DNA of 16,161 nucleotides from Candidatus Fraserbacteria bacterium (GCA_037443265.1 JBBIOR010000002.1:89049-105209), one strand, 5' to 3'; shown: positions 1 to 15,811, counted from the stretch's first letter. The notes: generated by a model from the sequence alone, not told the origin. Numbers and translations: made by a program.

Positions 1-61
1 GCTGAGGCTGAGGCTGAGGCTGAGGCTGAGGCTGAGGCTGAGGCTGAGGCTGAGGCTGAGG
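1..61. repeat. Perfect hexanucleotide tandem repeat (GCTGAG)x10+, encoding a (Pro-Gln)n tail of FtsH
   Basis: Directly visible. In the ftsH frame it reads ...[12 protein letters not shown]... (CCT CAG) to the window edge. Confidence 0.97.
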
Positions 62-1900
62 AGCAGTCTCCTTGAGCAGCTGGTCCAGCTTGTCGCCTTC
101 GAGGACCTCGACTTCTAAGAGCTTCGTGGCTAGCCTCTTGAGCGTCTCGCGGTGCTGGGTGAGCAAATCCTTGGCCCGCTCGTAGCAATGCTCGATGATG
201 GCTTTGATCTCCTCATCGACGACCGAGGACATCTTCTCGCTGTGCTCGCGGTTTAAGATCAAATCTTGGCCCAAGAAGACGTTGCCGTCCTCACGGCCCA
301 GATTGATGGGACCCACCCGCTCGCTCATCCCGTAGCTTACGACCATGCGCTTGGCGATCTCTGTGGCCTTCTTCAGATCGTCGTAGGCACCGGTGGTGAT
401 CTCCCCAAAGATGATCTCTTCGGCGGCCCGGCCTCCGAGCGTGCTGGTCAAGCGATCGAGCAATTCCTGCTTCGAGTAGAGATATTTGTCTTCCAGGGGG
501 AACTGCAGGGTGTATCCCAGGGCCTCGCCGCGGGGCACAATGGAGATGCGATGCACGGGATCGGCCTTGGGCAGGAGTTTTCCCACCAGGGCATGGCCCG
601 CCTCGTGATAGGCAATCTTAATCTTTTCCTCCTCGCTGATGAGCCGGCCCTTGCGCTCGATGCCCGCGATCACCCGATCGATGGCATCTTCAAAGTCTTT
701 GAGGCCGATAGAGTCTTTACCGCGGCGGGCCGCCAAGAGCGCGGCCTCATTGCAGAGATTCTCTAAATCCGCGCCGACGAAGCCAGGCGTACGGCGGGCC
801 AGAATCGCTAAGTCCACATCTTTTGCCAGCTTCTTGTTCTTCGTGTGGACTTTGAGAATGGCCTCGCGCCCCTTAATATCCGGAGGCGGGACGGTAATCT
901 TTCTGTCGAAGCGGCCGGGGCGCAAAAGAGCAGGATCTAAAATATCGGGGCGATTGGTGGCCGCCAACACGATCACGTGCTCGTTCTTCTCGAAGCCGTC
1001 CATCTCCGAGAGGAGTTGATTGAGCGTCTGCTCGCGCTCGTCGTGGCCGCCGCCGATGCCCGCCCCGCGCTTTCTTCCCACCGCATCGATCTCGTCAATG
1101 AAGATGATCGCGCCCTTCTTGCCCTTGGTCTCTTCTTTGGCCCTTCGGAAGAGATCACGCACCCGGGCCGCGCCCACTCCCACGAACATCTCCACGAAAT
1201 CACTGCCAGAGATCGAGAAGAACGGCACATCGGCCTCGCCTGCGATCGCCCGCGCCAGAAGAGTCTTGCCTGTGCCCGGCGTACCCACGAGCAAGACGCC
1301 CCGGGGGATCTGAGCCCCCAGGCGCACAAACTTCTGGGGATCTTTCAGATACTCGACGATCTCCTCGACTTCTTCTTTCACTTCATCGATGCCCGCCACA
1401 TCCGCGAAGGTAATCTTTGAATATTCTTTGTTGAAGATCCGCGCTTGGCTTCGGCCAAACGAGAAGGCACTGGTGCCTTCCCCCTGCATCCGGCGGATCA
1501 TCAAGAACCAGAGCATCCCGAAGAAGAAGAGCGGCAAAAGATAAATGAGAATCGTCCAGAACATCGAAAAGTCCTGCTCCGGCTCCACCTTGACCACTAC
1601 ATTCTTCTCCTTGAGCAGCTGAATTAAACCGGGATCATCAGGCCAGATGAACGTAGAGAATCTCTCTTTGCCGCCTTCGGACCAGGTGACTTGCCGGCCG
1701 CGGAGCACGACTTCGCCGACGCGGCCCTGCTCGACGGCTTGGAGGAAATCGCTATAGCTCTTGGCCTCGCCGGGAGCCGGCGCCCGCAGCGACTGCACCA
1801 GCACGATCACAAAGACCGCCGCGATGATCAGGAGCACAATCGTGCGGAAATTGCGGCTCCTTCGGCGCTGCTCGTCCTCAGGGCTCAGTTTGCCATTCAC
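1..1900 (-). CDS. ftsH: ATP-dependent zinc metalloprotease FtsH (3' end outside window)
   Basis: Absent from the ORF track because there is no stop in the window; translated by hand. GTG start at 1900 with RBS AAAGGAGAGG (1911-1920). Two N-terminal TM segments, [10 protein letters not shown], Walker [30 protein letters not shown], Walker [33 protein letters not shown] and the zinc motif AYHEAGHAL (about 590-610). Confidence 0.98.
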
Positions 1901-1974: not shown

Positions 1975-2895
1975 CTACTGAATTGCGTTTTGGGTCGCCT
2001 CCGTCGGATGACGGAGTGCGGAGACGACTCTCTGGGCGATCTCTAGGCCCGCGCGGCGCTGGGCCTCCTCCGTCTGCGCCCCGATGTGAGGCGTAAGAAT
2101 CACGCTCGGATGACCCCTCAAGCGCTCCTCGTTGGCCACATCCGCAGCATAGCCCGCCACTCGCCCCTCATCTAGAGCTTTGAGCATGGCAGCCTCATCC
2201 ACGACCTCGGCCCGCGCGGTGTTGACGACATAGACGCCCTCCTTCACGCGCTTAAGCGCCTCGGCGTCGAGCAGCTGCCGCGTCTCTTCCGTGAGCGGGA
2301 CGTGAATCGTGAGGATGTCGCTCCCGCCCAAGACGGCGTGGAAGTCGACTCGTTGGAGGGGCAGATCTTTTGGCCCGGCGGTGGGATCGGGCTCATGCGC
2401 GATGAGCTCCATGCCAAAGGCCGCCGCTAAATGGGCCACCCGGCTGCCGATGCGCCCCAGACCCACGATGCCCAGCCTCTTGCCCCGAAGCTCCCAGCCA
2501 TAAGTCTTGAGTCTTTCCCGCGAGCTGAAGGCCTTGGGCAGCTGGCGCGCCAGAGCGATGATCAAGCCCATCGTCAGCTCAGCTACGGCGTTCGCGTTGG
2601 CCTGTGGAGTATTGAGCACAAGCACATGAGCGCGCTCGGCCGCTTTAAGATCGATATTGTCCAGTCCCGTGCCAGCCCGGCCGATCACCCTGAGCTTAAA
2701 GCCTCGCCGGATCTCTTCGGCTCCCACGCGGGTGCGACTGCGCACGATCAGGGCATCGACTTCGCCTAGGGCCTGCAGCAGCTCCTGGCGGGAAATCTCC
2801 GGCTGTAGGAGCAATTCTACATCCGGCTGAGACGTAAGCCAAGCAATCGCCTCCGGATGCAACGGGTCACTCACTAGAATCTTAAACGCGTTCAT
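1975..2895 (-). CDS. serA: D-isomer-specific 2-hydroxyacid dehydrogenase, D-3-phosphoglycerate dehydrogenase-like, without ACT/ASB regulatory domains
   Basis: LIVRSRT, IGRAGTGLDNID, NANAVAE, Rossmann GLGRIG, HVPLTEET, NTAR and TPHIGAQTEEAQ. RBS GAGGAG upstream. The family is secure; the exact substrate is less so. Confidence 0.8.
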   Translation of the reverse strand: MNAFKILVSDPLHPEAIAWLTSQPDVELLLQPEISRQELLQALGEVDALIVRSRTRVGAEEIRRGFKLRVIGRAGTGLDNIDLKAAERAHVLVLNTPQANANAVAELTMGLIIALARQLPKAFSSRERLKTYGWELRGKRLGIVGLGRIGSRVAHLAAAFGMELIAHEPDPTAGPKDLPLQRVDFHAVLGGSDILTIHVPLTEETRQLLDAEALKRVKEGVYVVNTARAEVVDEAAMLKALDEGRVAGYAADVANEERLRGHPSVILTPHIGAQTEEAQRRAGLEIAQRVVSALRHPTEATQNAIQ

Positions 2896-2982: not shown

Positions 2983-5900
2983 ATGAAGCGAAAGTCTTTT
3001 ATGCTGTGTATCGCGGCAATCGCGTCCATCGGCAGCGCGTTGCAGGCGGCGGCCCAACTCCCCGAGCTGGCCCAAAGCCCCTCGTATAAAGTCTCCGGGC
3101 AGATCAGCTGGCTCTTGCGCTATGGAGGAGGTGACGGGCAAGGCTTAAGCCAAAAGGGCTACTCCCGAGGCCTCTTCTTCTCCCAGGCCCTCAGCCTCGA
3201 TGCCGACATTTCAGTGAGAGTCGAACGCCCCATGGCGGGCATCCTCTCGCTCAGGGCGCTCTTGGACAATCAACAGCCGGACTTCTTGCAGTCGCTCGAG
3301 ATGCGCTGGCAGGCTAGAAGCTGGCAGATCGAATTCGGAGATTTTCCGATGGGCCGGCCAGGAAGCCTCTTGGCCTCCCCTTCCAGGCTGCTCAAGGGCT
3401 TTCGGGCAGAGTGGCAGCTGAGCGATCGTCTCACCCTGGGCGGGATCTACTCCCAAGTCTCCGGCATCCTGCAATCGCGCACCTTCCGCGGGAACAGCGT
3501 GGAGCAGACGATCACGTTCGCGTTCCGTCGGCCCGACCGACCCCTGCTCGAAGAGCCGTATCTGCGCAACCTCCGCGGCCTAGATTATTTCCCGTTGGGA
3601 AAGAGCTACGTGGAGGGCTTCACCCCAGTGAGCCTGGCCTTCAAAGCGGACTCCCGACTCGAGGAGATCCTGCGGGACTATGACTTAGGCTCTCTGTTCA
3701 AGACGATCGCAGATGATCCTGAGCTGGATCTCGATCCCTCTGCCTACACGGTGATCTTCACCGGCGAGGAATATTTTCTAGCGCTCACCCGTGAGTTCTT
3801 AGCCCTCGTCCGAGAACGTCTCTTAAAATATATCGACGACTACAATCTCGCTTATGGGAGAAGCGGGGAAGATCGCAAGGAGTACCCCTTCAGCGAGGGC
3901 ACAGAGTATGAGCTAGGGTTTCTTAGGCGCCTGAGCGAGATCGTCGCCCTGAAAGTGGGCTCGCTCTCTTTCCGAGCGCAGGACGCCGCCCGCCAGAGAT
4001 TCTATGCCCTGGGGCATCAAGATATTCAAGCCGAGAGCCTGAAGATAGAGATCAAACTCGAAGAGGATTTTAAAGATATTCGCGACCCGGCTCTGGGGGA
4101 TTATAGATATAAAATCTACGCCGATGTGGGCATAATTGAGCTCGATTTTCCCGCGGATTTCTTTAAGAACCCCCAGAGCGGCGTGCGGGTGACCTATAGC
4201 TATCAATCGGGCTCGGGGACGTATGTGCTTGGGCTCTCCATCCTCAAGGGGAGCGAAAAAGTCTACCTCAACGGCCAGCTGCTCCAGTCTGGAGTGGACT
4301 ATCTCATAGAGTATGAGACGGGCTTCCTGATTCTTCTTAGGGAGATCAAGAGCGATGATGTGCTGCGCGTGGATTACGAGCTGGCCCGTGGGGCGCTGGG
4401 AGTCGGCGGCGACTACGGCCAGAGCTTCCAGGGCCTGACGCTCTCGTATGCGCCGCTTACGAACTTGAAGCTCAATTTTGATCTGCTGCAGTCGTTCGAG
4501 ACTCCTAGGCCGGGCGCCGCCCCTGAGACTCTGCCCACCATGCCCAACACCCACACCGTGCTGGGCATAAGCGGCCGGCTGGAGAACGAAACGCTTCAGA
4601 GCCAGTTCGAGGCCGGCTTTACGATCAATCGCTTCCCGCCGGATGACAATCTCAAAGAGAATCTCCCCAATAGAATCAATGCCATCTATGCCTTCGAGCA
4701 CGGGGGGCGAGCCTTACTGCTCTTCGGCCACCGCAATGGGCTTCTGGTCTACGACGGCCGCGACTGGAGCTCCTATGGCCTGGCGGAGGGCTTAAGCGGC
4801 CTGACGATCTATGACATCGCCCAAGCTCCCGAACAGCTGGTCCTGGCGACTTCGGGAGGGATCTCGCTCGTCAGAATCCAGCCGGGAGATCCCTCCTCCA
4901 GCTTCGCCCGCCGGGCCAACTGGAAGAGCCTCTCGGAACAAGACGGCCTGCCCAGCAGCACCGTCTACGCCCTGCTCATCGAGGGTGGCCAGCTTTGGGC
5001 AGGCACGGAGAAGGGCCTAGCCCAGGCCCCTCTTACGGATTTGACCCGCTGGAAAGTCTTCGATCGCCGCACGCATCCGGAGATGCTGAGCGAGCGCGTC
5101 TTTGAGCTGGCTGCCTCCCGAGGCCGGATCTACGTGGGCACAGACAAGGGCCTTATGATCTTTGACCCGCAGACGGAGAGGTTTCAGATGGTGGAAGATC
5201 TTCGCGGGCTCCCTATTCGCGCGCTCGCCATAGACGGCCCGCTGGTCTACGCGGCGACGGATCGAGGCGTGCGCGCCCTAGAAGACGGGCTTTTGCTCGG
5301 CTGGATCGTCTCGAACACCCCTGTTAAGGCCATGGCTGTGATGGGCGGCGAGTTCTGGTACAGCACTCCCCAAGGGCTCTATGGGCTTAAGAAGGGCCTG
5401 ATTGCCGAGACGCGCGGGAGAGTCATCACGGCGCTGGGCGGCTCAGGGGAGGCCCTCTGGGCCGGAGAAGAGGCCACGGAAGAGTATGAGCTCATTCTAT
5501 TTGAGGTCCGCTCGGATCTGGAAGGAGCCCGCCGCCATCTTCAGGCGGAGACGCTTCTCGACGGCCGGGCCCGCGATCGCTATCGGGACATTCCCGCTTT
5601 TGAGCACACGGACTACGGCTGGATCGGCCGCTGGCTGATGAGCAAACAGCTGGGGCCCCTTAAGCTCGAAGGTTCTCTTGAAGGCAGCTCGCCCCGATAC
5701 ACCCCCATCGGCACGCTCAGTCGCCAGGATCAACTGAGACTGGGCCTCAGCGCGCTCTACCCCCTGAGTGAAGCCCTAAGCGTGCGCGCCCGCCACGAGG
5801 AGGGACTCTCAGATCTCTTCCGGGCCCCGTCTTTGACCCTGCAAGATGGGATTGGGCTCCAGTTCAGCTCAGCTTCCGGCCCCCAGCTCAGTTTAGAATA

Positions 5901-7032
5901 CACCATCCGCCACATCGATCAGGATCTAAAGAGGCCAGGCTACGATCGCCAGGAGTGGGCCTATACTCTATCGGCCCTCCAGAGATTTTTGGACTCGCGC
6001 CTCACGCTCCGGCTCAGCTACGAGCTCTCTCAGACGGAGGCCCCACGACAGCCGCTCTACTCGTCTTGGCTGAGCAATCTGAACGGCCAGGCGACGTTCC
6101 ATGCCCTGCCGGGCCTTACGCTTAGGCTCAACTATCGTCTGCCGATCCAGTGGCGCTTCGGTCAGACGCTCGGAGATCACCGGCTGGATTGGGGAGCGCA
6201 ATATTCCACGGGGCTCGTGTTGGCGCAGTTGCCCCTCTCCGTGGACGCCAGCTACGGCGGCCGAAGCCAGCTCTCTCTCGCTGGCCTGGGGAACGCTCTG
6301 GATCAAGATGCCAGCGTGCTCTTTAGAGTAGCAGCCGTGCAGCTGGGCGGGCTGACTCTGCTGCCCCAGGCGTCCTTCTCCCTGCGCTCGGGGGATCTCT
6401 TCGGTCCCAATGCCAGTTTTCAATGGAGCGGCGAGGGCACGCTCGAGGGGCGCCTTTTGGACCTGAGCGGCCGCCTCACCTACAGGAGGGCGCAATTCTC
6501 CTATCCCCGCAGCCAGCTCGCTCGCCTCCAAGACAGCTTAAGGATCAGCCTGGACTATCAGGGCTTCTCAAGCCTACGGCCCACTTTGGAGCTCTTCGGC
6601 ACGCTGGAGACGCTCGCCCACCCCCTCTTTGGGCGCAAGACCCGCGGGCAATATGACATCGCTTTGAGAGTCGTATGGCAGGCCCTAGGGCCGCTTCAGG
6701 CCGAGCTTCAGCTCAGCCATCGCCGGGAAGAGAACGATCGGGCGCGAACGGCCTCGTATCTGCTCCAGCAGAGCCTACAGTATGCGCTTCTGCCAGGCTT
6801 AGCCCCCCGGCTAGACTTTCAAGTCGAGTATGTCCTGGGTCAGGAGGGAGGGGAGGCCGTGGAGAGGCTGTCGGGAGAGCTTACGCTCGCTTCCGAACTG
6901 AAACTCATGGAAGAGTGGAGCGCGACTCTTTCTGGGGCGTATCTTTTCGGGCTCGACGCGATCCGCCCTTCTGGGTCGTATCATAGCTTCGCCCTCACGC
7001 TGCAAGTGGGGCGCCCCTTTGCCCTCTTTTAG
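2983..7032 (+). CDS. Large outer-membrane beta-barrel protein with SprA/Sov-like motifs and an inserted beta-propeller (putative T9SS-like translocon)
   Basis: 1349 aa with a Sec signal peptide. Motif GSEKVYLNGQLLQSGVDYLIEYETGFLIL...LRVDYE (about 4249-4380) resembles the SprA EGVDYxVDYxxG segment and is preceded by a degenerate copy (about 3997-4200). Reg_prop-like repeats (GLSGLTIYDI, GLPSSTVYALLIEGGQLWAGTEKGL, IYVGTDKGL; about 4660-5520). Long amphipathic beta-strand C-terminal region ending in Phe. Confidence 0.65.
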   Translation: MKRKSFMLCIAAIASIGSALQAAAQLPELAQSPSYKVSGQISWLLRYGGGDGQGLSQKGYSRGLFFSQALSLDADISVRVERPMAGILSLRALLDNQQPDFLQSLEMRWQARSWQIEFGDFPMGRPGSLLASPSRLLKGFRAEWQLSDRLTLGGIYSQVSGILQSRTFRGNSVEQTITFAFRRPDRPLLEEPYLRNLRGLDYFPLGKSYVEGFTPVSLAFKADSRLEEILRDYDLGSLFKTIADDPELDLDPSAYTVIFTGEEYFLALTREFLALVRERLLKYIDDYNLAYGRSGEDRKEYPFSEGTEYELGFLRRLSEIVALKVGSLSFRAQDAARQRFYALGHQDIQAESLKIEIKLEEDFKDIRDPALGDYRYKIYADVGIIELDFPADFFKNPQSGVRVTYSYQSGSGTYVLGLSILKGSEKVYLNGQLLQSGVDYLIEYETGFLILLREIKSDDVLRVDYELARGALGVGGDYGQSFQGLTLSYAPLTNLKLNFDLLQSFETPRPGAAPETLPTMPNTHTVLGISGRLENETLQSQFEAGFTINRFPPDDNLKENLPNRINAIYAFEHGGRALLLFGHRNGLLVYDGRDWSSYGLAEGLSGLTIYDIAQAPEQLVLATSGGISLVRIQPGDPSSSFARRANWKSLSEQDGLPSSTVYALLIEGGQLWAGTEKGLAQAPLTDLTRWKVFDRRTHPEMLSERVFELAASRGRIYVGTDKGLMIFDPQTERFQMVEDLRGLPIRALAIDGPLVYAATDRGVRALEDGLLLGWIVSNTPVKAMAVMGGEFWYSTPQGLYGLKKGLIAETRGRVITALGGSGEALWAGEEATEEYELILFEVRSDLEGARRHLQAETLLDGRARDRYRDIPAFEHTDYGWIGRWLMSKQLGPLKLEGSLEGSSPRYTPIGTLSRQDQLRLGLSALYPLSEALSVRARHEEGLSDLFRAPSLTLQDGIGLQFSSASGPQLSLEYTIRHIDQDLKRPGYDRQEWAYTLSALQRFLDSRLTLRLSYELSQTEAPRQPLYSSWLSNLNGQATFHALPGLTLRLNYRLPIQWRFGQTLGDHRLDWGAQYSTGLVLAQLPLSVDASYGGRSQLSLAGLGNALDQDASVLFRVAAVQLGGLTLLPQASFSLRSGDLFGPNASFQWSGEGTLEGRLLDLSGRLTYRRAQFSYPRSQLARLQDSLRISLDYQGFSSLRPTLELFGTLETLAHPLFGRKTRGQYDIALRVVWQALGPLQAELQLSHRREENDRARTASYLLQQSLQYALLPGLAPRLDFQVEYVLGQEGGEAVERLSGELTLASELKLMEEWSATLSGAYLFGLDAIRPSGSYHSFALTLQVGRPFALF

Positions 7033-7035
7033 GGC

Positions 7036-8034
7036 TCAATGAGTCGGATCGTCTGGCGGGCAGAACTCCGGCCTGAGCGCACACAACAGCACATTCGGCG
7101 GCCCAAACACAGCTGAGAACGAGATCCTGTGAACACCCGGAAGCACCGGATGCCAAGCAAAGGCATAATCCACTCGAAAATCATTGACTCTTAGGCCAAA
7201 GCCGATGCTGGGCGCAAGCAGCGACCCCAGATTCTTAAGCCCCAGACGGACGCTGAGCTCCGCCATGCCCAGGGTCTCGAGGCCCCGCAGCTGCCACTCG
7301 CCCCCCAGATGGAAGGTCCCATTCGCTTCCACATCGAAGGCCATAGATAGGCCATCGGGAAGCGTGGCGGCGGCTCCCAGCCTAAGCCCCGGCCCCCAGG
7401 ATTCGTAATGCCCGCGGCCGTAAGAGATCCCCGGGCTCAAAAGATCTGAAGCGATCAGCCCAAAGCGCAGAGTCTGCACGGGAATTCCGGCCAAGAGCAA
7501 GCGCTCCTGCCTCCACAAGAGGCTGGGCGCGAGCGAAAGGGTCGTCCCGCTGCCCTCAGGGAGCGTGTTGACGCGATAGATCTTAAGCTGAAGCCCCACG
7601 GCCAGAGGCAGATCCAGCTCCAAGGGGGCTTCGCTCAGCCAGAGGCCCGCACCGGCTATGAGGCCCAGCTGCCCATAGGGCAGCTCTCCCAGAGGCACGG
7701 CCCGTTCATCGCGCTCCGAGATGCCTGGGATGCCGAGGAAGAAGAGTTGCCCTCCGAAGTTGGGCAGAGCCAACGCGAGCGTGCCGTAGTTGACGCGCGC
7801 AAAGCGACTCTCGTAGAGGCCACTAAAATATAATTCTTTCAGGGACGCCAAAGCCGCGGGGTTATAAAAAATGGCGTGCTCGTCCTCCGCCAAGGCGACG
7901 AAGGCCCCGCCCATCGCCAAAGGACGCGCACCCTCCTCCAGTTCGAAGAGGCCCACCAAGCTCTGGGCACGGACGGCTGACGGCTGATAGCTGAAGGCTA
8001 AAAGGGCCAGCAGCACGGCTGTTAAGATCTTCAT
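7036..8034 (-). CDS. PorV/PorQ-like (UPF0164, FadL-fold) outer-membrane protein, copy B
   Basis: Signal peptide; family signature GARPLAMGGAFVALAEDEHAIFYNPAALA; C-terminal GFGL...FRVDYAF...HRISF. The start overlaps the upstream stop (ATGA). Confidence 0.85.
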   Translation of the reverse strand: MKILTAVLLALLAFSYQPSAVRAQSLVGLFELEEGARPLAMGGAFVALAEDEHAIFYNPAALASLKELYFSGLYESRFARVNYGTLALALPNFGGQLFFLGIPGISERDERAVPLGELPYGQLGLIAGAGLWLSEAPLELDLPLAVGLQLKIYRVNTLPEGSGTTLSLAPSLLWRQERLLLAGIPVQTLRFGLIASDLLSPGISYGRGHYESWGPGLRLGAAATLPDGLSMAFDVEANGTFHLGGEWQLRGLETLGMAELSVRLGLKNLGSLLAPSIGFGLRVNDFRVDYAFAWHPVLPGVHRISFSAVFGPPNVLLCALRPEFCPPDDPTH

Positions 8035-9107
8035 CGTTGGATCACCAACACCTCCACGCGCGAGGTGAGCACCCCGCCGGGCGTAGCAGCTCGCACCAGG
8101 AAGAAATAAGGCCCGTTGGGCACAGGACTACCGCGCTCATCCCTGAGGTCCCAGAAGAACTCCCTTCGCGTGACATCGAGCGGGCGGGTCAAGACCGGTC
8201 GGCCCAAAAGATCAAACAAAAAGAGCGTCGCCTGCGTGGTCCCCTCCGGCAGGAAATAGACGAACCGAGTGAAGGTCCGGGCCGGATTGGGGGCCACCGT
8301 CACCAGGATCTCATTGGGTCCAGGAGCCTGGAAGACGTAGAGACGCTTGACGACTTCGCCGCTCGCGCCGCGGTTATCCGTGACCGTGAGCCGGACGGTG
8401 TAGATCCCGCTTTGAGCAAATCTATGAGAGGGGGTCTGGACGTCAGAGGTCGTGCCGTCGCCAAAATCCCAGAGCCAGCGGGTGATCCGGCCGTCGGGAT
8501 CTCGAGAGCGATCGAGGAATTGAAGGGTGTCGCGGGCGCTGGGGAATGGGGGCGTCCAGTCAAAATCGGCCACGGGCGGCTGATTGACCCCTGATATAAT
8601 GCGAATTATTCCAGGCACCACACGGTGGGGGATGAGTTGAAACTGCCGATTGTGGAAGAACTCAAAGGCGGGATTGAGGGTGGCCGTCTGCCCCACAGCT
8701 CCGGCGGCTTTAATAATCAAGCGAAAGAGCTCGCCCTCGGCGATGCCTTCTTCTCCCTGCGGGCCGGGGCACTTGGTCGCCGCGAAGCGCACTACTTCCG
8801 CTTCAATCTTCGCGGCCGTCACGGGGCAGTCCGGGGGAAACTCGACCCGCAGAACTTCGATCACCGCGGGATTGAAGCTGAGAGTCCCTTGGTAGCTCAC
8901 CAGCTTCATGTCTGCAGGAATGTCTTTGACCGTGACTTGGATCGTCGCCTCTGCTCCCTGGGGGACATCGGCACTTTCTACGGTGATGACCGCCTGAGGC
9001 TGTCCTGAGGGCGTCTGGACTTGAGAGAAGGCCGGAAGAGCCCCCACCCAGAGTAAAATCAAGCCCGACAGGGCCAGGCCTATGCGTCGCTTGCCCATTC
9101 TGGTCAT
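8031..9107 (-). CDS. Secreted cohesin-like + PKD + T9SS type-A-like/FlgD-Ig C-terminal domain protein, copy B
   Basis: Signal peptide; cohesin-like YQGTLSFNPAVIEV...GELFRL; PKD NQPPVADF...WLWDFGDG...YTVRLTVTD; CTD VAPNPA...FDLLGR...WDLRDERGSPVPNGPYFF...LVIQR. RBS AAAGGGG. Confidence 0.85.
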   Translation of the reverse strand: MTRMGKRRIGLALSGLILLWVGALPAFSQVQTPSGQPQAVITVESADVPQGAEATIQVTVKDIPADMKLVSYQGTLSFNPAVIEVLRVEFPPDCPVTAAKIEAEVVRFAATKCPGPQGEEGIAEGELFRLIIKAAGAVGQTATLNPAFEFFHNRQFQLIPHRVVPGIIRIISGVNQPPVADFDWTPPFPSARDTLQFLDRSRDPDGRITRWLWDFGDGTTSDVQTPSHRFAQSGIYTVRLTVTDNRGASGEVVKRLYVFQAPGPNEILVTVAPNPARTFTRFVYFLPEGTTQATLFLFDLLGRPVLTRPLDVTRREFFWDLRDERGSPVPNGPYFFLVRAATPGGVLTSRVEVLVIQR

Positions 9108-9143
9108 CGCTCTTCCCCTTTCTGTGCACCTTACGCTTCCAGG

Positions 9144-10094
9144 CTACAGCCGCCAAGAGAGAGAGAGTCGATGGGAGCCTGGAAGCTCGGGATGGCTCAC
9201 GAAGGCGTAATCGATTTGAAAGTCCTGCACTGTAAGGCCCAGGCCCAGGGTGATCGAAAGGAGTCCTTCGCGGACCATGCCCCCAAGACGGATCGCCAGA
9301 TCTCCCATCTCGGCCAGGGGCCTTAGGCGCACTTCGCCTCCCAGATGGAACTCAAAGGGGACAGCCAAGTCAAGTCCGATGGCCAGTCTTGGCATGAGCA
9401 CGGCCGAGCCCAGGCGCAGTCGAATCGGCCAGCCCTCCCGGCGGCCGCTTGCGGAGAGCGTCCCGGTGCTCAGCAGATTCTCCATGGTCAGGCCCGCTCG
9501 CAGGGCCTCCAGCCTAAAGCCCGCCAGTTTCACCTCGGGCAGACTCATCAAGAACGAGGGGTCGAGTCCGAAGCCTGCGCCGCTTGCGGGGCCCAGGGTG
9601 CTCACGAAGAGCACCTTCGCTCTCAGACCTGCAGAGAAGCCTTGCAGGCCGCGCGTCCTGCTCCCCACCCAGGGCAGCTCGCTCAGACTCACCCCAGTAG
9701 CCCCCATCAGGGCCAGTTGGAGATGGCTGAAGGAGCCCTGGGGCTGATCGTTGGCATCGCGCTGTTCTACGCTGCCGAAGTTGAAGAGCGAAAGCCCTAC
9801 TCCCAAGCGGCGCATGCCAAAGGCGGCGCTCAGGTAATCTGAGCTGGCAAAATGGCTCTCGTAGAAGGCGCTCACCCGCAGATCTTCCAGAAAAGCCAGC
9901 CCAGCTGGATTGTAGTAGAGCGCCTGCTCGTCATCGGCGAGGGCCGCAAAGGCCTCCCCCATCCCCAGCGCGCGCACTCCTGCGCCCAGCTCGAAGAGCG
10001 TCCAGGTGGGAAGCTGAGAGAAGCCGCTCAGAGCCAGCATAGCCAAAAGTCCCAGCGCTACCCCCAACGCTTGCAGCTTCTTTGTCATGTCCAT
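9144..10094 (-). CDS. PorV/PorQ-like (UPF0164, FadL-fold) outer-membrane protein, copy A
   Basis: Signal peptide; GVRALGMGEAFAALADDEQALYYNPAGLA; C-terminal GLGL...FQIDYAF...SHRLSLSWRL. Confidence 0.87.
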   Translation of the reverse strand: MDMTKKLQALGVALGLLAMLALSGFSQLPTWTLFELGAGVRALGMGEAFAALADDEQALYYNPAGLAFLEDLRVSAFYESHFASSDYLSAAFGMRRLGVGLSLFNFGSVEQRDANDQPQGSFSHLQLALMGATGVSLSELPWVGSRTRGLQGFSAGLRAKVLFVSTLGPASGAGFGLDPSFLMSLPEVKLAGFRLEALRAGLTMENLLSTGTLSASGRREGWPIRLRLGSAVLMPRLAIGLDLAVPFEFHLGGEVRLRPLAEMGDLAIRLGGMVREGLLSITLGLGLTVQDFQIDYAFVSHPELPGSHRLSLSWRL

Positions 10095-10101
10095 CGCCCT
10101 T

Positions 10102-11136
10102 TCATCGCTGGATGACCAGCCGCTGGACGGCAGAAGAAGTCATCCCTCGATCCTGAATGGCTGCCCGCACCAGATAATAATAAGGCCCACTGGGTAGATC
10201 TCGGACTTGTGAATCCGTCAAGTTCCATTGGAAGGTGTTGGCCGTGATCGACAGCGCCGTGGTGAAGACCTGTCGTCCAGTCAGGCTGAAGACGTATAGT
10301 GTGGCCGCGGTAGTCTTCTCCGGCAGGGTATAGCGAAAGGTGGCTGATAGGCGAGCCGGATTGGGGAAGACGTGGACGCTGACCGGCGGCAGCTGCCCCG
10401 GTGCGACAACAGTGATTTGTTTGGAGGCGGTACTGGTGGCCCCTTGGCTGTCTTTCACCGTAAGCTTCACGGTGTATGTGCCAGCTGTCTTGTATTTATG
10501 ACTAGGAGTCTGCAGGGTGCTCGTGGTGTTATCTCCGAAGTCCCAACTCCAGGAGGTGATCTGAGCACCTCCGCTGGATTTATCAAGAAATTTTACTTCT
10601 TGGCCGGCTTGGGGCTCGGCAGGCTCCCAGGAGAAGTCGGCCTTCAGCTCCGCAGCCGCAGTCACACTCAGCTGGCCATTTATGATCGTAGGGGCCACAT
10701 AGGCCGTGGGCGTGTTGAAGCCGTTGACGGTGAAGGTGAGCGTAAGAGTCGTCTTCTGTCCCGCGGTACCGGTGGCCAGCAGATCGAACTGCATGAACTC
10801 CCCTTGGGTAAGAAGCGGCTCGGTGATCTTAAAGCCGATGAAGCGCACCTCGCCTAAAGCATTGTCTATCTGGAAGGCGGCTATGGTATAGCCGTTCAGC
10901 CCGAGGACGTTCTGGGCTGTGGCCACCTTGGGATCGTAGCTCAGCCGCCCCTGGAAGTTCGAGAGGCCGGGCGAGGGCATCCCTTGCAGGGAGACCTTCA
11001 CTGCACCCATCCGCCCTTGGCCGACCGTGATACTGGCCACCGTGACGGTCGCCTGCTGAGCCTTCAAAGTCCAAAAGAGTAGGCTGATCAACACCAGGGC
11101 TGCGCCGGCATACGGAGCGAATCTTCTATGGGTCAT
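10102..11136 (-). CDS. Secreted cohesin-like + PKD + T9SS type-A-like/FlgD-Ig C-terminal domain protein, copy A
   Basis: Signal peptide; cohesin-like FQGRLSYDPKV; PKD ADFSW...WSWDFGD...YTVKLTVKD; CTD VFPNPA...FSLTGR...WNLTD...LPSGPYYY...LVIQR. Confidence 0.85.
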   Translation of the reverse strand: MTHRRFAPYAGAALVLISLLFWTLKAQQATVTVASITVGQGRMGAVKVSLQGMPSPGLSNFQGRLSYDPKVATAQNVLGLNGYTIAAFQIDNALGEVRFIGFKITEPLLTQGEFMQFDLLATGTAGQKTTLTLTFTVNGFNTPTAYVAPTIINGQLSVTAAAELKADFSWEPAEPQAGQEVKFLDKSSGGAQITSWSWDFGDNTTSTLQTPSHKYKTAGTYTVKLTVKDSQGATSTASKQITVVAPGQLPPVSVHVFPNPARLSATFRYTLPEKTTAATLYVFSLTGRQVFTTALSITANTFQWNLTDSQVRDLPSGPYYYLVRAAIQDRGMTSSAVQRLVIQR

Positions 11137-11215
11137 GAGAAAATCTGCATGGCTATTCTAGGCTGTGAGGCCTGTGAGGCCGAAGGACAGCCGTCCTGAG
11201 CCAAAGGCCCTTCTG

Positions 11216-12412
11216 TCAACGGTCTTCAAAGAACTCCCAGCTTCTTGAGAGGCTGAGAACCCCCTTGTCCCAGCCCGTGGAGGAGATCCACGACGAGGAG
11301 CCAGAGAGCTCCCAGACGTCAGAAGATACGCTGCCCGAAAGATCCAGCAGCCACAGGCTGCCCGTGTAATTGAATACCCCATTCAACAGGGCCACCTCAT
11401 AGAGGGCTTGGCCCAAGAGCATCCCGTTGGCGATGCCCGCCGGCCCCAGCCCCAGCTTGCCCTGAAGATTAAAGCCAATATCAATCTTAGAAGCCTCAAG
11501 TTGCGCCCTCCAGCTCCCCGGCAAAAGACTTAGGGTCGCCTGCGCGGAGTCTGCCAAATTATGCCAGCGGCCTGCCAGCTGCGTCTCCAGCCAGCCACCT
11601 GGCCCCCAACGCACCAGGCCACGGGCATCGATATCTGGCCGTAGAGGCTGCTCGGCTTCCACCCAGGCCTCTTGCCATCCAGACCCAGACGGAGAGAGAG
11701 ACGAGCCTAGGCTGAGCGGCCCACTCCTGAGCCCAAGCTCCAGCTTTCGCCAGAGCCACCGTGACGGCTCCTCGGCTGCTATGAATTGCCCCAGCCAGCT
11801 TAGCTCTTCCGCCGGGGAGAACCTCCAGAGGAGACCCAGATTCAGGGGCAGATCTTTTGCGCTGTCAAAGCTTACTTTCACCGTGAGTGGCTGGCTCAAT
11901 GTCCACAAGAGCTCGGCCCCCTGGAGTGTCCACTGATCCTTTTGCCATTGGAGCTGGGCGATTTGTAGGTTCCACGCTGGGCCTTTGAGCCAGCCCTGGA
12001 GCGTCCAAGTCGAACCTGAAGGCGAGAACTGGACGCTCAATGCCAGCTGTCCGAAGGAGATGCGGCTCTCCAAGCCTAGCTGCACGGAGTAGCTGGAGCT
12101 GGAGGAGGGGGCGTCCATCTCCCAGCGGGCAGAAGCCCTAGCTCGCCAGCTGGCCTGCTCCAGGCTCTGGGAGAGGCCGAGGCGCAACGATGGAGTCTCT
12201 TGCAGGCTCCGGGTGGCTTCCAGTTGGGCCTGCCAGGCGGCTCGCTTTAAGTCGGCACGCAGGGTGAGCTCGGGGGCGGAGTGGGCGAAGAAGCTCACTT
12301 CGAAGGCCAGCTGAACTTGCCGAAGATCTTCTGAAATCTCCTGCCCCCAAGCAAAAGAGCTCATCAGGGTCAGCAGGGCCCCAAGCAAGGCCCCTGCTAA
12401 TCTTTTGAGCAT
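11216..12412 (-). CDS. Hypothetical exported protein, probable outer-membrane beta-barrel
   Basis: 398-aa ORF with a signal peptide (AWG/Q). Trp/Gly/Leu-rich alternating amphipathic strands throughout and aromatic residues near the C-terminus (SWEFFEDR). No family recognised. Confidence 0.6.
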   Translation of the reverse strand: MLKRLAGALLGALLTLMSSFAWGQEISEDLRQVQLAFEVSFFAHSAPELTLRADLKRAAWQAQLEATRSLQETPSLRLGLSQSLEQASWRARASARWEMDAPSSSSSYSVQLGLESRISFGQLALSVQFSPSGSTWTLQGWLKGPAWNLQIAQLQWQKDQWTLQGAELLWTLSQPLTVKVSFDSAKDLPLNLGLLWRFSPAEELSWLGQFIAAEEPSRWLWRKLELGLRSGPLSLGSSLSPSGSGWQEAWVEAEQPLRPDIDARGLVRWGPGGWLETQLAGRWHNLADSAQATLSLLPGSWRAQLEASKIDIGFNLQGKLGLGPAGIANGMLLGQALYEVALLNGVFNYTGSLWLLDLSGSVSSDVWELSGSSSWISSTGWDKGVLSLSRSWEFFEDR

Positions 12413-12517: not shown

Positions 12518-13084
12518 TCAGAAGACCTCATCCAGGGGGATCTCCAAGCCCGCAAGCAGCGGCGACTTCAGCCTCTCCCCGCGGTGATAGAGGCCCACCC
12601 GCTGGTAGCCTCGCTCCTTAAGCTGAAGCACCTCAATCGTCTGAAGCTCGGGCTCTACGATCCAATATTCCTTCACCCCATGCCGAGCGTACAGGGTGCG
12701 CTTGTAGGCGCGATCCTTTTCGGCAGTAGTTGGGGAGAGAACTTCTACTACCAGATCTGGAGCTCCACGGATCTCGTCTTCTTGAATGATGCGGCGTCGG
12801 GCCTTAGAGACGTAGAGGATGTCCGGCTGGACGACCTGCTCCATCCCAGGCTCTCCAAGCACCACGTCCAACGGAGCCTCATACACACGACCTAGCTGGC
12901 GTTCCTTAACAAAATGGCGTAGATGGAAGGCAAGTTCTCCACAGGCCCATTGATGGGCCTCTCCGGGTGAAGGAGGCATGGGAATCAACTCCCCCCCTAA
13001 GAGCTCATACCGCTGCCGCTCGGAGTAGGGCAAGCTCTTGTAGTCGTGATAGGTAAACCGAATTGGGCTCTGGACTTTGGCCAT
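12518..13084 (-). CDS. Uma2 family (DUF820) PD-(D/E)XK putative endonuclease
   Basis: RYELLGGEL, PSP..HQ, VVQPDILYV, GAPDLVVEVLSP, DR..KRTLYARHGVKEYWIV. Confidence 0.93.
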   Translation of the reverse strand: MAKVQSPIRFTYHDYKSLPYSERQRYELLGGELIPMPPSPGEAHQWACGELAFHLRHFVKERQLGRVYEAPLDVVLGEPGMEQVVQPDILYVSKARRRIIQEDEIRGAPDLVVEVLSPTTAEKDRAYKRTLYARHGVKEYWIVEPELQTIEVLQLKERGYQRVGLYHRGERLKSPLLAGLEIPLDEVF

Positions 13085-13135: not shown

Positions 13136-13255
13136 ATCCACTAATCCGTTCTCGATCCGTTGACAGAGAGCAGAAAACGCAAGGAGCCCCGGGTTCTCCC
13201 CAGGGCCCCTTCCCTTGGCCATTGCAGTCGTTGACCCTAAGGCTCACGTCATCTC
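13136..13255 (-). repeat. Repeat copy R2: degenerate tail, terminator hairpin and CTGTCAACGGAT motif
   Basis: Aligns by eye with 13738-13840 and 14228-14346 (TAATCCG......ATCCGTTGACAGA...AAGGRGCCCCGGG...GGGCCCCTYCCCT). Confidence 0.85.
13172..13211 (-). terminator. Intrinsic terminator (in R2)
   Basis: Minus-strand 13-bp GC stem with two G-U pairs (13181-13211), followed by GCGTTTTCT. Confidence 0.7.
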
Positions 13256-13600: not shown

Positions 13601-13740
13601 CCTAAGACGAGCGTTTCCGCTTTGGGGACCTTGGCGAGTGAGATGCGCTTACCCGGATACTTGGCCTGTGCTTGACGATAGACCTCTTCGGCTTCATCTC
13701 CGCTGGTGGCGACTTTCCCTTCGACCAAAGCCACCCATTC
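13597..13740 (-). pseudogene. 5'-truncated DUF5678-like small protein
   Basis: EWVALVEGKVATSGDEAEEVYRQAQAKYPGKRISLAKVPKAETLVLG* is the usual upstream partner of such aspartic proteases. Upstream, the frame runs directly into repeat R3, with no plausible start. Confidence 0.7.
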
Positions 13741-13840
13741 CCATCCGTTGACAGAAAAGAACAAAGGGGCCCCGGGTTCTCCCAGGGCCCCTCCCCTTGC
13801 CGTTCGTTGTGTGTGCGTTGAGGTTACGGGACGATCGTCT
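13738..13840 (-). repeat. Repeat copy R3: orphan RTX-gene tail (TIVP*), linker, terminator hairpin and CTGTCAACGGATGGGAA
   Basis: 13738-13756 is identical to 14242-14260 (19 nt). 13824-13840 reads AG ACG ATC GTC CCG TAA, versus AG ACC ATC ATC CCC TAA at the end of the gene at 14329. Confidence 0.9.
13752..13792 (-). terminator. Intrinsic terminator (in R3)
   Basis: AGGGGCCCUGGG-AGAA-CCCGGGGCCCCU (12-bp stem, one U-G pair), followed by UUGUUCUUUUC. Confidence 0.8.
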
Positions 13841-14227: not shown

Positions 14228-14346
14228 ATCCGTTAATCCGCTTCCCATCCGTTGACAGAAGAAGCAAAGGGGCCCCGGGCTTTCCCCCTGGGGCCCCTCC
14301 CCTGGGCCGTTTGTGGGTTAAGGTTAGCTTAGGGGATGATGGTCTC
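14228..14346 (-). repeat. Repeat copy R4: native 3' end of the RTX-like gene, terminator hairpin and CTGTCAACGGAT motif
   Basis: Most complete copy; aligns with R2 and R3. Confidence 0.9.
14256..14298 (-). terminator. Intrinsic terminator of the CTD-RTX-RTX transcription unit
   Basis: AGGGGCCCC-A-GGG-(GGAAAG)-CCC-GGGGCCCCU followed by UUGCUUCUUC, 30 nt after the stop at 14329. Confidence 0.8.
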
Positions 14347-15030
14347 GCAGGTGTCTGTTGAGCCACCCACTAGAGCGAGCTGCCGCAAGTTCACCAGGAC
14401 GCCCCCTTTGCGGCCTACCGCCTTAAAGTTTCCATTGAGATAGACTATATCAGCACCTGGACCGCAGTCGATGAAGTCTTGCCCGCTGTTGCGGTCGAGA
14501 ATGATGGTGTCGTCTCCGCCCCCTGCCCGCACCGTGTCCGGCTCGTTGTCACCCACCAAGTTGATCGTAGACTCGGCATCTAAGTTAAGCACGTCTCGAC
14601 CCCTACCATCCACAATGGTGAATTTCGCCGAGGAAGTTTGTACCGTTATGGTATCGTTTCCTAATCCACCATCCAGATAGTGTGGGCCGCCGCTCGTACC
14701 TGTGCTTATGATCAAGTCGTTGCCAGACTCCGCGAAGACGGTGTAGGCTCCGCTTCCGCTGAGTGTGATCTGGTCGTTGCCGCTGCCGAGGAAGTGCTGA
14801 TCTGTCCCCGCACTGCTATTGGTGACGACATCGTTACCCCCGAGCGCGTAGACCGTGTCCGAACCTGCGAACATTACTGTCATCACGTCATTGCCATTGG
14901 TGCCGACGCAGGGGCCTCCTCCTCCTGGACAAGCGATGATCGCGGCGTGGGCCAAGAAGGCGACGGCACCCAGCATCGCCACGAGGCTCGCTAGCCCCCC
15001 CACCAGCATCTGAGGGTTTATCTTCCGCAT
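14329..15030 (-). CDS. Secreted calcium-binding protein with RTX/hemolysin-type GGxGxD repeats, paralog 2 (233 aa)
   Basis: True start at 15030 (MRKINPQML...), supported by RBS AAGGAGG and alignment with paralog 1. Signal peptide, CPGGGGPCVGT, repeats LGGND/GSGND/ESGND/GGLGND/GRGRD, C-terminus DTCETIIP. Confidence 0.88.
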   Translation of the reverse strand: MRKINPQMLVGGLASLVAMLGAVAFLAHAAIIACPGGGGPCVGTNGNDVMTVMFAGSDTVYALGGNDVVTNSSAGTDQHFLGSGNDQITLSGSGAYTVFAESGNDLIISTGTSGGPHYLDGGLGNDTITVQTSSAKFTIVDGRGRDVLNLDAESTINLVGDNEPDTVRAGGGDDTIILDRNSGQDFIDCGPGADIVYLNGNFKAVGRKGGVLVNLRQLALVGGSTDTCETIIP

Positions 15031-15097
15031 GTATGCCAACCTCCTTCGCATCTGTCCGAGATCTTTTGCCAAGACTTTGGGCCTCAGAACCTCGAGC

Positions 15098-15811
15098 TTA
15101 CGGGATGATGATCTCGCAGGTGTCGGTCGAGCCGCCCAAGAGTGCAATCTGGCGCAGATTGACTAACACACCGCCCACGCGGCCCACCGCCTTGTTGTTC
15201 CCGTTGAGGAAGACGATGTCGAAGCCGCCCCCACACACGATGAGGTCTTGGCCGCTGTTGCGATCCAGGACGATGGTATCAGCATTCCCATCGGCAGGGT
15301 CTATAAAGACGCTGTCCGGTTCGTTATCTCCGACCAAAAAGAGGGTGACACCACCAGTAGCTGCTAGGATATTGATTGCATCGCGACCCGGACCGTCTGT
15401 GATGGTCACACCTGCGACGATACCAATGATGTTGAACGTGTCATTCCCTCGTCCGCCGTTTAGCGTGGCTCCAAGCGCAAGAGCGCCAGTGACGTTGAAA
15501 ATATCGTTGCCGTCCTCGCCAAGGATAGTTTTAGCTCCCGTGCTGGTTATATTGAATGTGTCATTGCCGGTGCCACCAAAGATCAGGTGGGCAACTGCTG
15601 TAGTATCATTGATGGTATCGTTGCCTCCGAGCCCGAAAATGCTCTGAGCAGCGGTTCCAGCGGTGATCGTGTCCGCGGCATTGGTACCAACACAAGGCAC
15701 TCCTCCTGCTGGACACCCAATGATGGCCCCATAGGCCAAGAAGGCGACGGCCCCGAGCATCAGGAGCAGGCTCGCCAGCCCTCCTAACATCTGCGGTTTG
15801 ATGTTACGCAT
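15098..15811 (-). CDS. Secreted calcium-binding protein with RTX/hemolysin-type GGxGxD repeats, paralog 1
   Basis: RBS AAGGAGG; signal peptide; CPAGGVPCVGT; repeats GLGGND, GGTGND, GEDGND, GGRGND, DGPGRD; C-terminus DTCEIIIP. Confidence 0.9.
   Translation of the reverse strand: MRNIKPQMLGGLASLLLMLGAVAFLAYGAIIGCPAGGVPCVGTNAADTITAGTAAQSIFGLGGNDTINDTTAVAHLIFGGTGNDTFNITSTGAKTILGEDGNDIFNVTGALALGATLNGGRGNDTFNIIGIVAGVTITDGPGRDAINILAATGGVTLFLVGDNEPDSVFIDPADGNADTIVLDRNSGQDLIVCGGGFDIVFLNGNNKAVGRVGGVLVNLRQIALLGGSTDTCEIIIP

Follow-up and report, generated by a model that had tools for sequence, protein, structure and literature searches.

Does the outer-membrane core of a type IX secretion system (T9SS) exist outside the lineages to which the system has been assigned? 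Reviews up to October 2026 restrict the T9SS, in the text available from them, to Bacteroidota (PMC13721041, PMC10994853), and the broadest range stated in the accessible parts of other papers is the Fibrobacterota–Chlorobiota–Bacteroidota (FCB) superphylum (PMC12398890, PMC9170169). The question is raised by a locus on a 16,161-nucleotide (nt) stretch of DNA from Candidatus Fraserbacteria bacterium (GCA_037443265.1, JBBIOR010000002.1:89049-105209), which we analysed as a whole and refer to as the window; it forms the terminal 16.2 kb of contig C2 in a genome of 1.69 Mb and 44 contigs. An earlier note on this DNA had described a compact T9SS-like row of genes in an apparently non-Bacteroidota host, made up of a large SprA-related protein, two PorV-like genes, secreted proteins with a T9SS-type C-terminal domain (CTD) and a further barrel, with no PorK/L/M/N, PorU or PorW gene in sight. 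We read the locus, with moderate confidence, as a stripped-down, T9SS-related export and display module that combines a SprA-like pore, cargo-dedicated PorV-like carriers and type-A-like CTDs, and that possibly works without a motor.

The core of the window is a single plus-strand gene facing a row of five minus-strand genes. The plus-strand open reading frame (ORF; 2983-7032) encodes an exported protein of 1349 amino acids (aa) with a signal peptide, here called BIG, a presumed outer-membrane protein and candidate translocon of SprA/Sov type and half size. In order of transcription, the minus-strand row comprises an exported orphan protein of 398 aa (11216-12412), the CTD protein cargo 1 (344 aa, 10102-11136), PorV-like barrel 1 (316 aa, 9144-10094), the CTD protein cargo 2 (358 aa, 8031-9107) and PorV-like barrel 2 (332 aa, 7036-8034). 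These genes are separated by 79, 7 and 36 nt and then overlap by 4 nt, where the stop of cargo 2 meets the start of barrel 2, and the stop codons of barrel 2 and the convergent BIG gene lie just 3 nt apart. All six complete proteins carry a signal-peptide-like N-terminus. A third CTD protein (15846-16160, minus strand) is cut by the contig end, leaving its C-terminal 104 codons. The layout of the earlier note, including the third CTD, was thus recovered at the same coordinates; what did not carry over is the designation of the 398-aa protein as a barrel, for which we obtained only weak porin-like leads. A promoter and terminator scan of the window gave no signal above chance, and Rfam gave no match.

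We first consider BIG, on which the comparison with T9SS turns. The single protein found no relative among genome contigs, and its family alignment was needed to detect any. This family includes 28 full-length homologues at 27-64% identity, the named ones from Candidatus Bipolaricaulia or Candidatus Fraserbacteria, and all 29 of its 29 members match the SprA model TIGR04189 locally (best E 1.7e-10), in BIG over a conserved motif at residues 403-466 (4189-4380). A profile of BIG residues 25-560, built from 21 genomes of the phylum and termed A3, yielded 2284 matches at E<=1e-3 among 1.84 billion representative proteins, 713 of them at E<=1e-10, and those beyond the BIG family are proteins of 1300-1900 aa. 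When 30 of the 150 listed A3 matches, all from outside the family, were sampled and scanned against NCBIfam, 27 matched the SprA model, three above its cut-off (204, 210 and 243 bits) and nine more at 138-193 bits; for reference, genuine SprA of Fibrobacter scores 1120 bits and also matches SprA_N. As intermediates, these proteins link BIG to SprA. When 12 of them were combined with the Fibrobacter SprA, hhalign aligned the BIG family to this set at 99.3% probability (E 3.5e-20, 461 columns, BIG residues 32-553). In the Protein Data Bank (PDB), A3 found SprA of Flavobacterium johnsoniae (6h3i_A, E 8.1e-11), the runner-up having an E of 0.3, and the alignment is colinear, pairing query 19-150 with SprA 147-284 and query 387-500 with SprA 695-804. 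Judged by these profile comparisons, the first ~530 residues of BIG, about 40% of the protein (residues ~32-553, 3076-4641), are a true, very divergent SprA homologue, and the proposed relation of the large protein to SprA stands for this N-terminal portion.

The remainder of BIG is built differently. Residues ~560-860 (4660-5562) form an inserted beta-propeller of Reg_prop type, for which the family profile matches the propellers of hybrid two-component sensors (E 8e-21) and, more distantly, PorZ (5m11, E 0.0045); the PorZ model NF052228 is matched by 15 of the 29 family members (best E 1.4e-5). The beta-rich C-terminal half (residues 860-1349, 5560-7029) is presumed to supply barrel strands and ends in Phe in BIG and in 24 of the 29 family members. 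For BIG, the ESM Atlas provided nothing usable. SprA is described as a 36-strand transmembrane barrel with an outside cap and a lateral opening in the available text of PMC10994853; going by size, a protein of 1349 aa that devotes ~300 aa to a propeller cannot reproduce this full architecture.

Reduced members of the SprA family are found elsewhere as well. The short SprA-like proteins of 1300-1900 aa (P0134, P0142, P0156 and others) bridge BIG and canonical SprA, and together with BIG-like proteins labelled Limnochordaceae or Bacillota they place reduced SprA-family barrels outside Bacteroidota; no short SprA-like protein is characterised. In a cluster labelled Bacillota, two metagenome contigs with BIG-like genes differ from the window in that neither a PorV-like nor a CTD gene lies within 8 kb, and we accordingly rejected the idea that the SprA-PorV-CTD triad is conserved wherever a BIG-like protein occurs. 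Two further observations concern the motif itself. Fibrobacter records L109-L118 and L120 contain, besides a SprA of 2278 aa, an ORF of ~968 aa in which this motif recurs, 45-48% identical to BIG residues 396-466 (a locus also found at G184:C95:42222-42383), which may be another reduced SprA-family member. Among 14 control genomes, Thermus thermophilus matches TIGR04189 below the cut-off at a loose threshold, so that the SprA motif may also be present in Deinococcota.

Next, we turned to the two small barrels. Barrel 1 matches the PorV/PorQ family model NF033709 at 70.8 bits (E 1.4e-19) and barrel 2 at 49.2 bits (E 5.4e-13), both below the cut-off of 90, and the two share 40% identity. Barrel 1 also matches the PorV2, PorQ and PorV models, with 33.4 bits against a cut-off of 250 for PorV proper (NF033710). 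A third PorV-like copy on contig C27 of the same genome reaches 77.8 bits on NF033709. An alignment of 25 PorV-like proteins (A5), three from this genome and 22 from others, found PorV (6h3i_F) as its best PDB match at E 4.7e-14, covering query 10-294 of 294, and all 25 members match NF033709 (best E 6.3e-24). There is also some likeness to the FadL/UPF0164 group of barrels (PF03349, PF03687): barrel 1 passes the Pfam UPF0164 threshold (24 bits, cut-off 21.4) and a FadL-type protein is the second PDB match of A5. However, this match is far weaker than that to PorV (E 0.014), and, as a further difference, every PorV-like copy follows a CTD gene. In NCBI records, close relatives of the barrels are labelled hypothetical, and distant ones in Eisenbacteria and Zixibacteria are labelled PorV/PorQ family. 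By profile comparison, then, the small barrels are nearer to PorV than to any other solved structure, in agreement with the earlier call of two PorV-like genes. A neighbour-joining tree, which carries no support values, sets subtilase-linked carriers apart from PKD-cargo-linked ones, with both window barrels in the latter group; the carriers appear, from these sequences, to be split by cargo class.

The presumed cargo proteins carry their tag at the very C-terminus, as does the third CTD protein. On the model TIGR04183 for the type A sorting domain of the T9SS (Pfam PF18962), cargo 1 (CTD at 10105-10371) scores 28.7 bits and the third CTD, which ends in ...NGVYLYVVTV...RSEVRKLVVLR, 26 bits, both above the 23-bit cut-off; cargo 2 (CTD at 8034-8300) scores 20.9 bits, below it. 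On our local CTD model, cargo 2 reaches 91.6 bits and the third CTD, as top match, 105.9 bits, and cargo 1 additionally matches the C-terminal part of the PorU model (E 2.4e-13). An alignment of 19 C-terminal domains (A6), with PNPA near its start, a G.Y.Y core and an LVI.R end, matched in the PDB the PorU CTD (6za2, residues 1060-1154, E 6e-11), the CTD of an F. johnsoniae substrate from a translocon structure (8glj_D, E 7.5e-4) and the PorZ CTD (E 7.9e-4); Ig-like domains of FlgD matched at about 1e-5. The prediction of CTD-bearing secreted proteins is thus borne out by matches to the CTDs of PorU, PorZ and F. johnsoniae substrates. Upstream of the tag, and following a signal peptide, both cargos contain a cohesin-like module and a PKD domain (PKD_4, E 8e-19 in cargo 1 and 1e-20 in cargo 2). 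The cohesin-like module lies below the Pfam cut-off (Cohesin, 0.0014 in cargo 2), and one relative passes at 33.4 bits. A single dockerin-type ORF is present in the genome (C3:6005-6160, minus strand; Dockerin_1, 38.4 bits, above cut-off), and it is possible that its product is the partner of the cohesin-like modules.

In total, the genome holds 11 ORFs with a CTD, a count that the phylum-wide search reproduced, and in 10 of them the domain ends at the C-terminus or at most two residues from it. Besides the two cohesin-PKD proteins of the window, they include two S8 subtilases, a Kelch/BNR protein and a CARDB protein. The sole CTD that is not C-terminal occupies residues 47-120 of a 475-aa ORF without a Pfam family (C26:1759-3186, minus strand, identical to L040:1759-3186) and could have arisen by fusion, from a wrongly called start or through a frameshift. 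On C27 (L034), a 364-aa CTD ORF (7747-8841, plus strand) lies just before the third PorV-like gene, and its start is overlapped by 25 nt by a 993-aa ORF with weak BatD/MG10-like matches (4790-7771, plus strand); the two may be one frameshifted gene. The 398-aa orphan that heads the minus-strand row matches no Pfam or NCBIfam family at E up to 10, and the ESM Atlas offers just the weak porin-like leads mentioned above. Among 5.8 billion clusters, two homologues of it turned up, and it occurs, within the order, in five of eight genomes of its own family and in 0 of 26 from other families, sharing the BIG contig in three. We conclude that it is a fast-evolving, lineage-specific accessory.

If BIG, the PorV-like barrels and the CTD proteins work together, their genes should be linked beyond this genome. 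Across the phylum, BIG is found in 175 of 184 genomes, our own among the 184 (70 of the 71 of high quality), with one match in most; PorV-like proteins in 177 (71 of 71), with 1-10 matches each; and CTDs in 178 (70 of 71), with 1-28 matches each. For gene order, we picked by hand 20 loci around BIG that cover all 11 families. In 16 of these, a CTD gene, a PorV-like gene and BIG follow one another on one strand with overlaps or gaps of <100 nt; one locus, from the host's own family, is convergent like the window, and three show no partner in the fetched stretch. The PorV-like gene abuts BIG in 17 of the 20 loci, as it does in the window. Each of the 22 PorV-like genes in the BIG loci has a CTD gene directly upstream on the same strand, and likewise all three PorV-like genes of our genome, including the copy on C27, directly follow a CTD gene. 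The hidden Markov models of the final 20-locus count were partly built from these loci, and a first pass with models from our own genome alone identified the same genes. By eye, adjacency of CTD, PorV-like and BIG genes was found in at least 30 genomes among the rows listed in both phylum searches. Given that the three families adjoin across the phylum, their adjacency in the window exceeds what chance would give.

The upstream CTD gene encodes an S8 subtilase in all ten cases examined, and the catalytic Asp, His and Ser are retained in 17-18 of 18 aligned sequences. In Porphyromonas gingivalis, porU and porV form a gene pair, which this pairing of a protease gene with a PorV-like gene resembles. 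A second, divergent type of pair consists of PKD-rich CTD proteins with additional PorV-like barrels. Among members of the host's own family, BIG no longer adjoins the subtilase pair and stands tail to tail with PKD-cargo pairs, a layout seen on a shared contig in G098, G100, G101, G102, G103 and G104 among the rows listed; the subtilase-CTD genes of our genome lie on contigs C33 and C3, and neither is followed by a PorV-like gene. What is locally new is the rearranged layout, with BIG facing two tandem cohesin-PKD cargo/carrier pairs, together with the cohesin-type cargo itself.

The same survey bears on a more modest explanation, in which BIG serves diderm Terrabacteria as an envelope protein of general use, for example in outer-membrane biogenesis, tethering or uptake, and its adjacency to the other genes reflects co-regulation. 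BIG is near-universal and present as one match in most genomes, as a housekeeping protein would be; it lies beside FtsH in the window and in 7 of the 20 loci; the Bacillota-labelled contigs carry BIG-like genes without PorV-like or CTD neighbours; and its C-terminal half has no demonstrable homology to SprA. On the other hand, some functional link seems needed to account for the tight order of CTD, PorV-like and BIG genes in 16 of the 20 loci, which span 11 families; the PorV-like and CTD families match BIG in their near-universal presence across the phylum, and the sole homologue of BIG to have been characterised works as a protein translocon. We therefore consider a general envelope function very unlikely. 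The conserved neighbours of BIG in the 20 loci were CTD genes, PorV-like genes, FtsH (7 loci), a gene of ~390 aa (6 loci) and two groups each seen in five loci, and no motor-like conserved neighbour was seen within 8 kb.

The identity of the host determines how far from Bacteroidota these genes lie. Searching named genome records with the BIG family alignment returned 79 loci, of which most full-length ones carry the names Bipolaricaulota, Acetothermia, Bipolaricaulis or Fraserbacteria; the other labels are uncultured Thermotogae, bacterium and one Neomarinimicrobiota. The top identities of BIG, 59-63%, are to Fraserbacteria records. From its relatives' sequences, the host is placed in Bipolaricaulota, nearest to the Fraserbacteria-named records and not in Bacteroidota/FCB. 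The suspected position outside Bacteroidota is upheld by relatives with Bipolaricaulota, Acetothermia or Fraserbacteria names and none from Bacteroidota/FCB. In the part of the source that was available, Bipolaricaulota and Fraserbacteria are diderm Terrabacteria beside Thermotogae (10.1101/2021.05.31.446380), and one closed Acetothermia genome is reported, as far as the accessible text goes, to be without lipopolysaccharide (LPS) genes (PMC6092417). In line with a diderm envelope without LPS, Omp85/BamA was present in all 26 genomes searched, our own included, and LpxC in one of the 26, with four control genomes positive. The exception is G052, a 3.7-Mb bin with 5% contamination, whose LpxC (270 bits) may be a contaminant or mark an LPS-bearing outlier lineage. 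We rejected an ordinary Bacteroidota/FCB host with a canonical T9SS, against which the names of the relatives, the half-size pore and the missing LPS all argue.

The lack of LPS also matters for the question of what happens to the cargo. The attachment complex of P. gingivalis, PorU-PorV-PorQ-PorZ (6ZA2, 5M11), resembles the present system in that a CTD-protease gene lies by a PorV-family gene, a PorZ-like propeller is present and the CTDs are closest to that of PorU; it differs in using a C25 cysteine sortase rather than an S8 serine subtilase, in attaching to anionic LPS, and in that the propeller is here fused into BIG. Conceivably, the locus is a surface-anchoring module of this kind, in which the PorV-like barrels hold CTD proteins and BIG, with a propeller of glycan-sensor type, is a platform like PorV-PorU-PorQ-PorZ, with cargo exiting elsewhere. 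The propeller shared with PorZ in about half of the BIG family (15 of 29), a best PDB match of the CTD profile to an attachment-complex protein, the protease/PorV-like gene pairing reminiscent of porU-porV, and a likeness to SprA that is demonstrable only in the N-terminal part of BIG would all suit such a module. Yet we saw no alternative outer-membrane route for folded CTD proteins, the homologue of BIG, SprA, is described in the available text of PMC10994853 as the pore itself, and LPS to attach to seems to be missing, LpxC being confined to one of 26 genomes. Moreover, Peptidase_C25, the sortase family, was not found in our genome and occurs in 2 of the 26 genomes searched across the phylum, a search made without a positive control genome, and in our genome the PorU model matched nothing but CTDs, so that no PorU was found. 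A pure anchoring role is unlikely on this evidence.

Whether a motor drives the system is the point on which the comparison with canonical T9SS is most delicate. The models for GldL, GldM, GldK and GldN (TIGR03513, TIGR03517, TIGR03525 and TIGR03523) had no match in our genome; SprE/PorW, PorD, Plug and PPI were not searched. The previously noted lack of GldK/L/M/N and PorU in the window thus extends to the whole genome, with the qualification that the GldL and GldM models lack a working positive control: GldL, GldM and GldM_1st were also without a significant match in SprA-bearing Fibrobacter genomes, and the GldN control matched nowhere. Because the GldL and GldM models fail in Fibrobacter with a genuine SprA, we do not claim that a motor is absent. 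More telling is the MotA/ExbB/TolQ family, which was found in 0 of 75 genomes (71 of high quality plus four others, our own included; two of them single-contig) and matched in nine control genomes. By this result, the usual proton-driven stators of outer-membrane processes are missing from the phylum, which appears to be without the customary Ton, Tol and flagellar stators.

These data allow us to weigh the possibility that the host has a complete, motor-driven T9SS, whose GldLM/PorLM motor and GldKN/PorKN hub are too divergent to be recognised or fall within the 12% of the genome that is missing from the assembly. The failure of the GldL, GldM and GldM_1st models in Fibrobacter, where SprA is found at 1120 bits, makes the negatives weak, the GldN control was matched in no control genome, the assembly is incomplete, and canonical transport is said to require energy for release (PMC10994853, in its accessible part). 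Against a hidden motor speak the lack of any motor-like conserved neighbour within 8 kb of BIG in the 20 loci, the 0 of 75 genomes with MotA/ExbB/TolQ stators despite positive controls, and the small size of the genomes (1-2 Mb). We regard a hidden, complete system as highly improbable.

The export and display module is grounded in homology, gene order and distribution; by analogy with the F. johnsoniae translocon we infer pore formation by BIG, binding of the CTDs by the carriers, and the route and fate of the cargo. In this module, cargo would be exported by Sec and then fold, and its CTD would be bound by loops of the cognate PorV-like carrier, itself docked on BIG. Passage across the outer membrane would be via BIG, with cargo and carrier departing together. 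As neither LPS nor a PorU-type sortase was found, the cargo is probably held on the surface by its carrier, in the way PorP/SprF hold type B cargo. On the surface, it would display cohesin modules able to dock the organism's own dockerin protein. Alternatively, the CTD-tagged S8 subtilases may release the cargo. With regard to energy, release would be independent of the proton-motive force, or another energiser would be present.

Several points weigh against this reading. On the SprA model TIGR04189, BIG itself scores 22.4 bits (E 1.5e-5) over residues 403-466 only, where the cut-off is 200 bits, and it has no match to Pfam SprA_N (PF14349) at E<=0.01, Pfam yielding just a weak Reg_prop match. 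The full-length BIG family profile found propellers only, and no SprA, in the PDB. The C-terminal half aligns weakly with the SprA-like proteins (hhalign 41%, E 2.7e-4), colinearly and reaching both C-termini, and its own profile had no PDB match at E<=10; judged by sequence, homology to SprA can be demonstrated for no more than the N-terminal ~40% of BIG. Both barrels remain below the NF033709 cut-off, and it is solely their gene order that suggests CTD binding. In the host's own family, the subtilase/PorV-like/BIG operon of the other families is broken up, and BIG-like genes stand without partners on the two Bacillota-cluster contigs, so that the large barrel may not in every case depend on such partners. 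Finally, the genome is 88% complete, and canonical T9SS needs a motor to free carrier and cargo (PMC10994853); no motor was found here, so that a purely analogous mechanism would be incomplete.

Compared with the F. johnsoniae SprA-PorV translocon (6H3I, 6H3J, 8GL6, 8GLJ; PMC10994853), the module has homologues of SprA, PorV and CTD, all Sec-exported, and links the carrier gene to the cargo gene. Unlike the 2403-aa SprA, BIG has 1349 aa and an inserted Reg_prop propeller, falls below the TIGR04189 cut-off without a SprA_N match, and shows no proven homology in its C-terminal half. According to the available text of PMC10994853, the canonical motor is believed to draw carrier and cargo together away from the translocon; here, the searches for GldKLMN and PorU gave nothing, there is no LPS anchoring, several paralogous PorV-like carriers each lie beside their own cargo, and the host belongs to the diderm Terrabacteria instead of FCB. 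In the pairing of carriers with cargo, the module resembles the type B CTD/PorP-SprF pairs of F. johnsoniae, where a cargo gene is linked to a dedicated outer-membrane carrier gene and the carrier probably fixes the surface destination of the cargo, as described in the accessible part of PMC12618676. Unlike those pairs, the present ones combine a type-A-like tag with carriers of the PorV/PorQ family.

A broader evolutionary reading can be put forward, tentatively, as a possibility that we find somewhat doubtful. According to this, the SprA-PorV-CTD triad would be an ancient, self-sufficient export device that predates the Bacteroidota machine and survives in Bipolaricaulota with a half-size pore. 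It would require no GldLM/PorLM motor, hub, LPS or Ton/Tol/Mot stator and would employ one PorV-like carrier per cargo class, with release or anchoring driven by carrier binding or a CTD-tagged subtilase rather than by the proton-motive force. The Limnochordaceae- and Bacillota-labelled relatives of the pore would then trace the system to early diderm Terrabacteria.

The secretion-like genes are flanked by others of more familiar or more obscure kind. To the left lie FtsH (2-1900, minus strand) and a phosphoglycerate-dehydrogenase-like enzyme (1975-2895, minus strand). To the right, the row is followed by a gene of the Uma2 family, a repeat-rich stretch, two RTX-repeat-like genes and the third CTD fragment. 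The Uma2-family gene (12518-13084, minus strand; Pfam E 1.9e-41) encodes a putative restriction endonuclease and lies between the row and the repeats. An element of ~80 nt occurs in three copies (13136-13217, 13724-13799 and 14228-14304) at a spacing of ~505-588 nt; it is composed of CCGTTGACAGA, a brief spacer and a palindrome rich in GC (GGGGCCCCGGG...CCAGGGCCCC), and has no Rfam match. At least two copies stand directly 3' of a minus-strand ORF, and the repeat may therefore act as a terminator or in regulation. The tandem paralogous ORFs of 272 and 237 aa (14329-15147 and 15098-15811, both minus strand) overlap, which leaves their starts uncertain; they share an N-terminal hydrophobic segment, glycine-rich repeats of GNDTI type with weak RTX/HemolysinCabind matches, and a common end, ...GGSTDTCE.IIP.

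Taken together, the outer-membrane core of a T9SS seems to exist far from Bacteroidota. BIG and the PorV-like proteins are annotated as hypothetical in the records, and our literature search brought up no account of T9SS-like genes from Bipolaricaulota, Acetothermia, Fraserbacteria or Terrabacteria, subscription journals and supplements being outside the scope of the search. A cassette conserved in nearly every genome of a deep-branching, LPS-free and stator-less phylum would widen the evolutionary range of the T9SS. It would also supply a natural minimal version with which to test the claim that energy serves only the release of carrier and cargo, and would offer a smaller translocon (1349 versus 2403 aa) for structural and reconstitution work. 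For the organisms themselves, it would explain the surface proteases and cohesin-type scaffolds of these uncultured peptide- and polymer-degrading bacteria.

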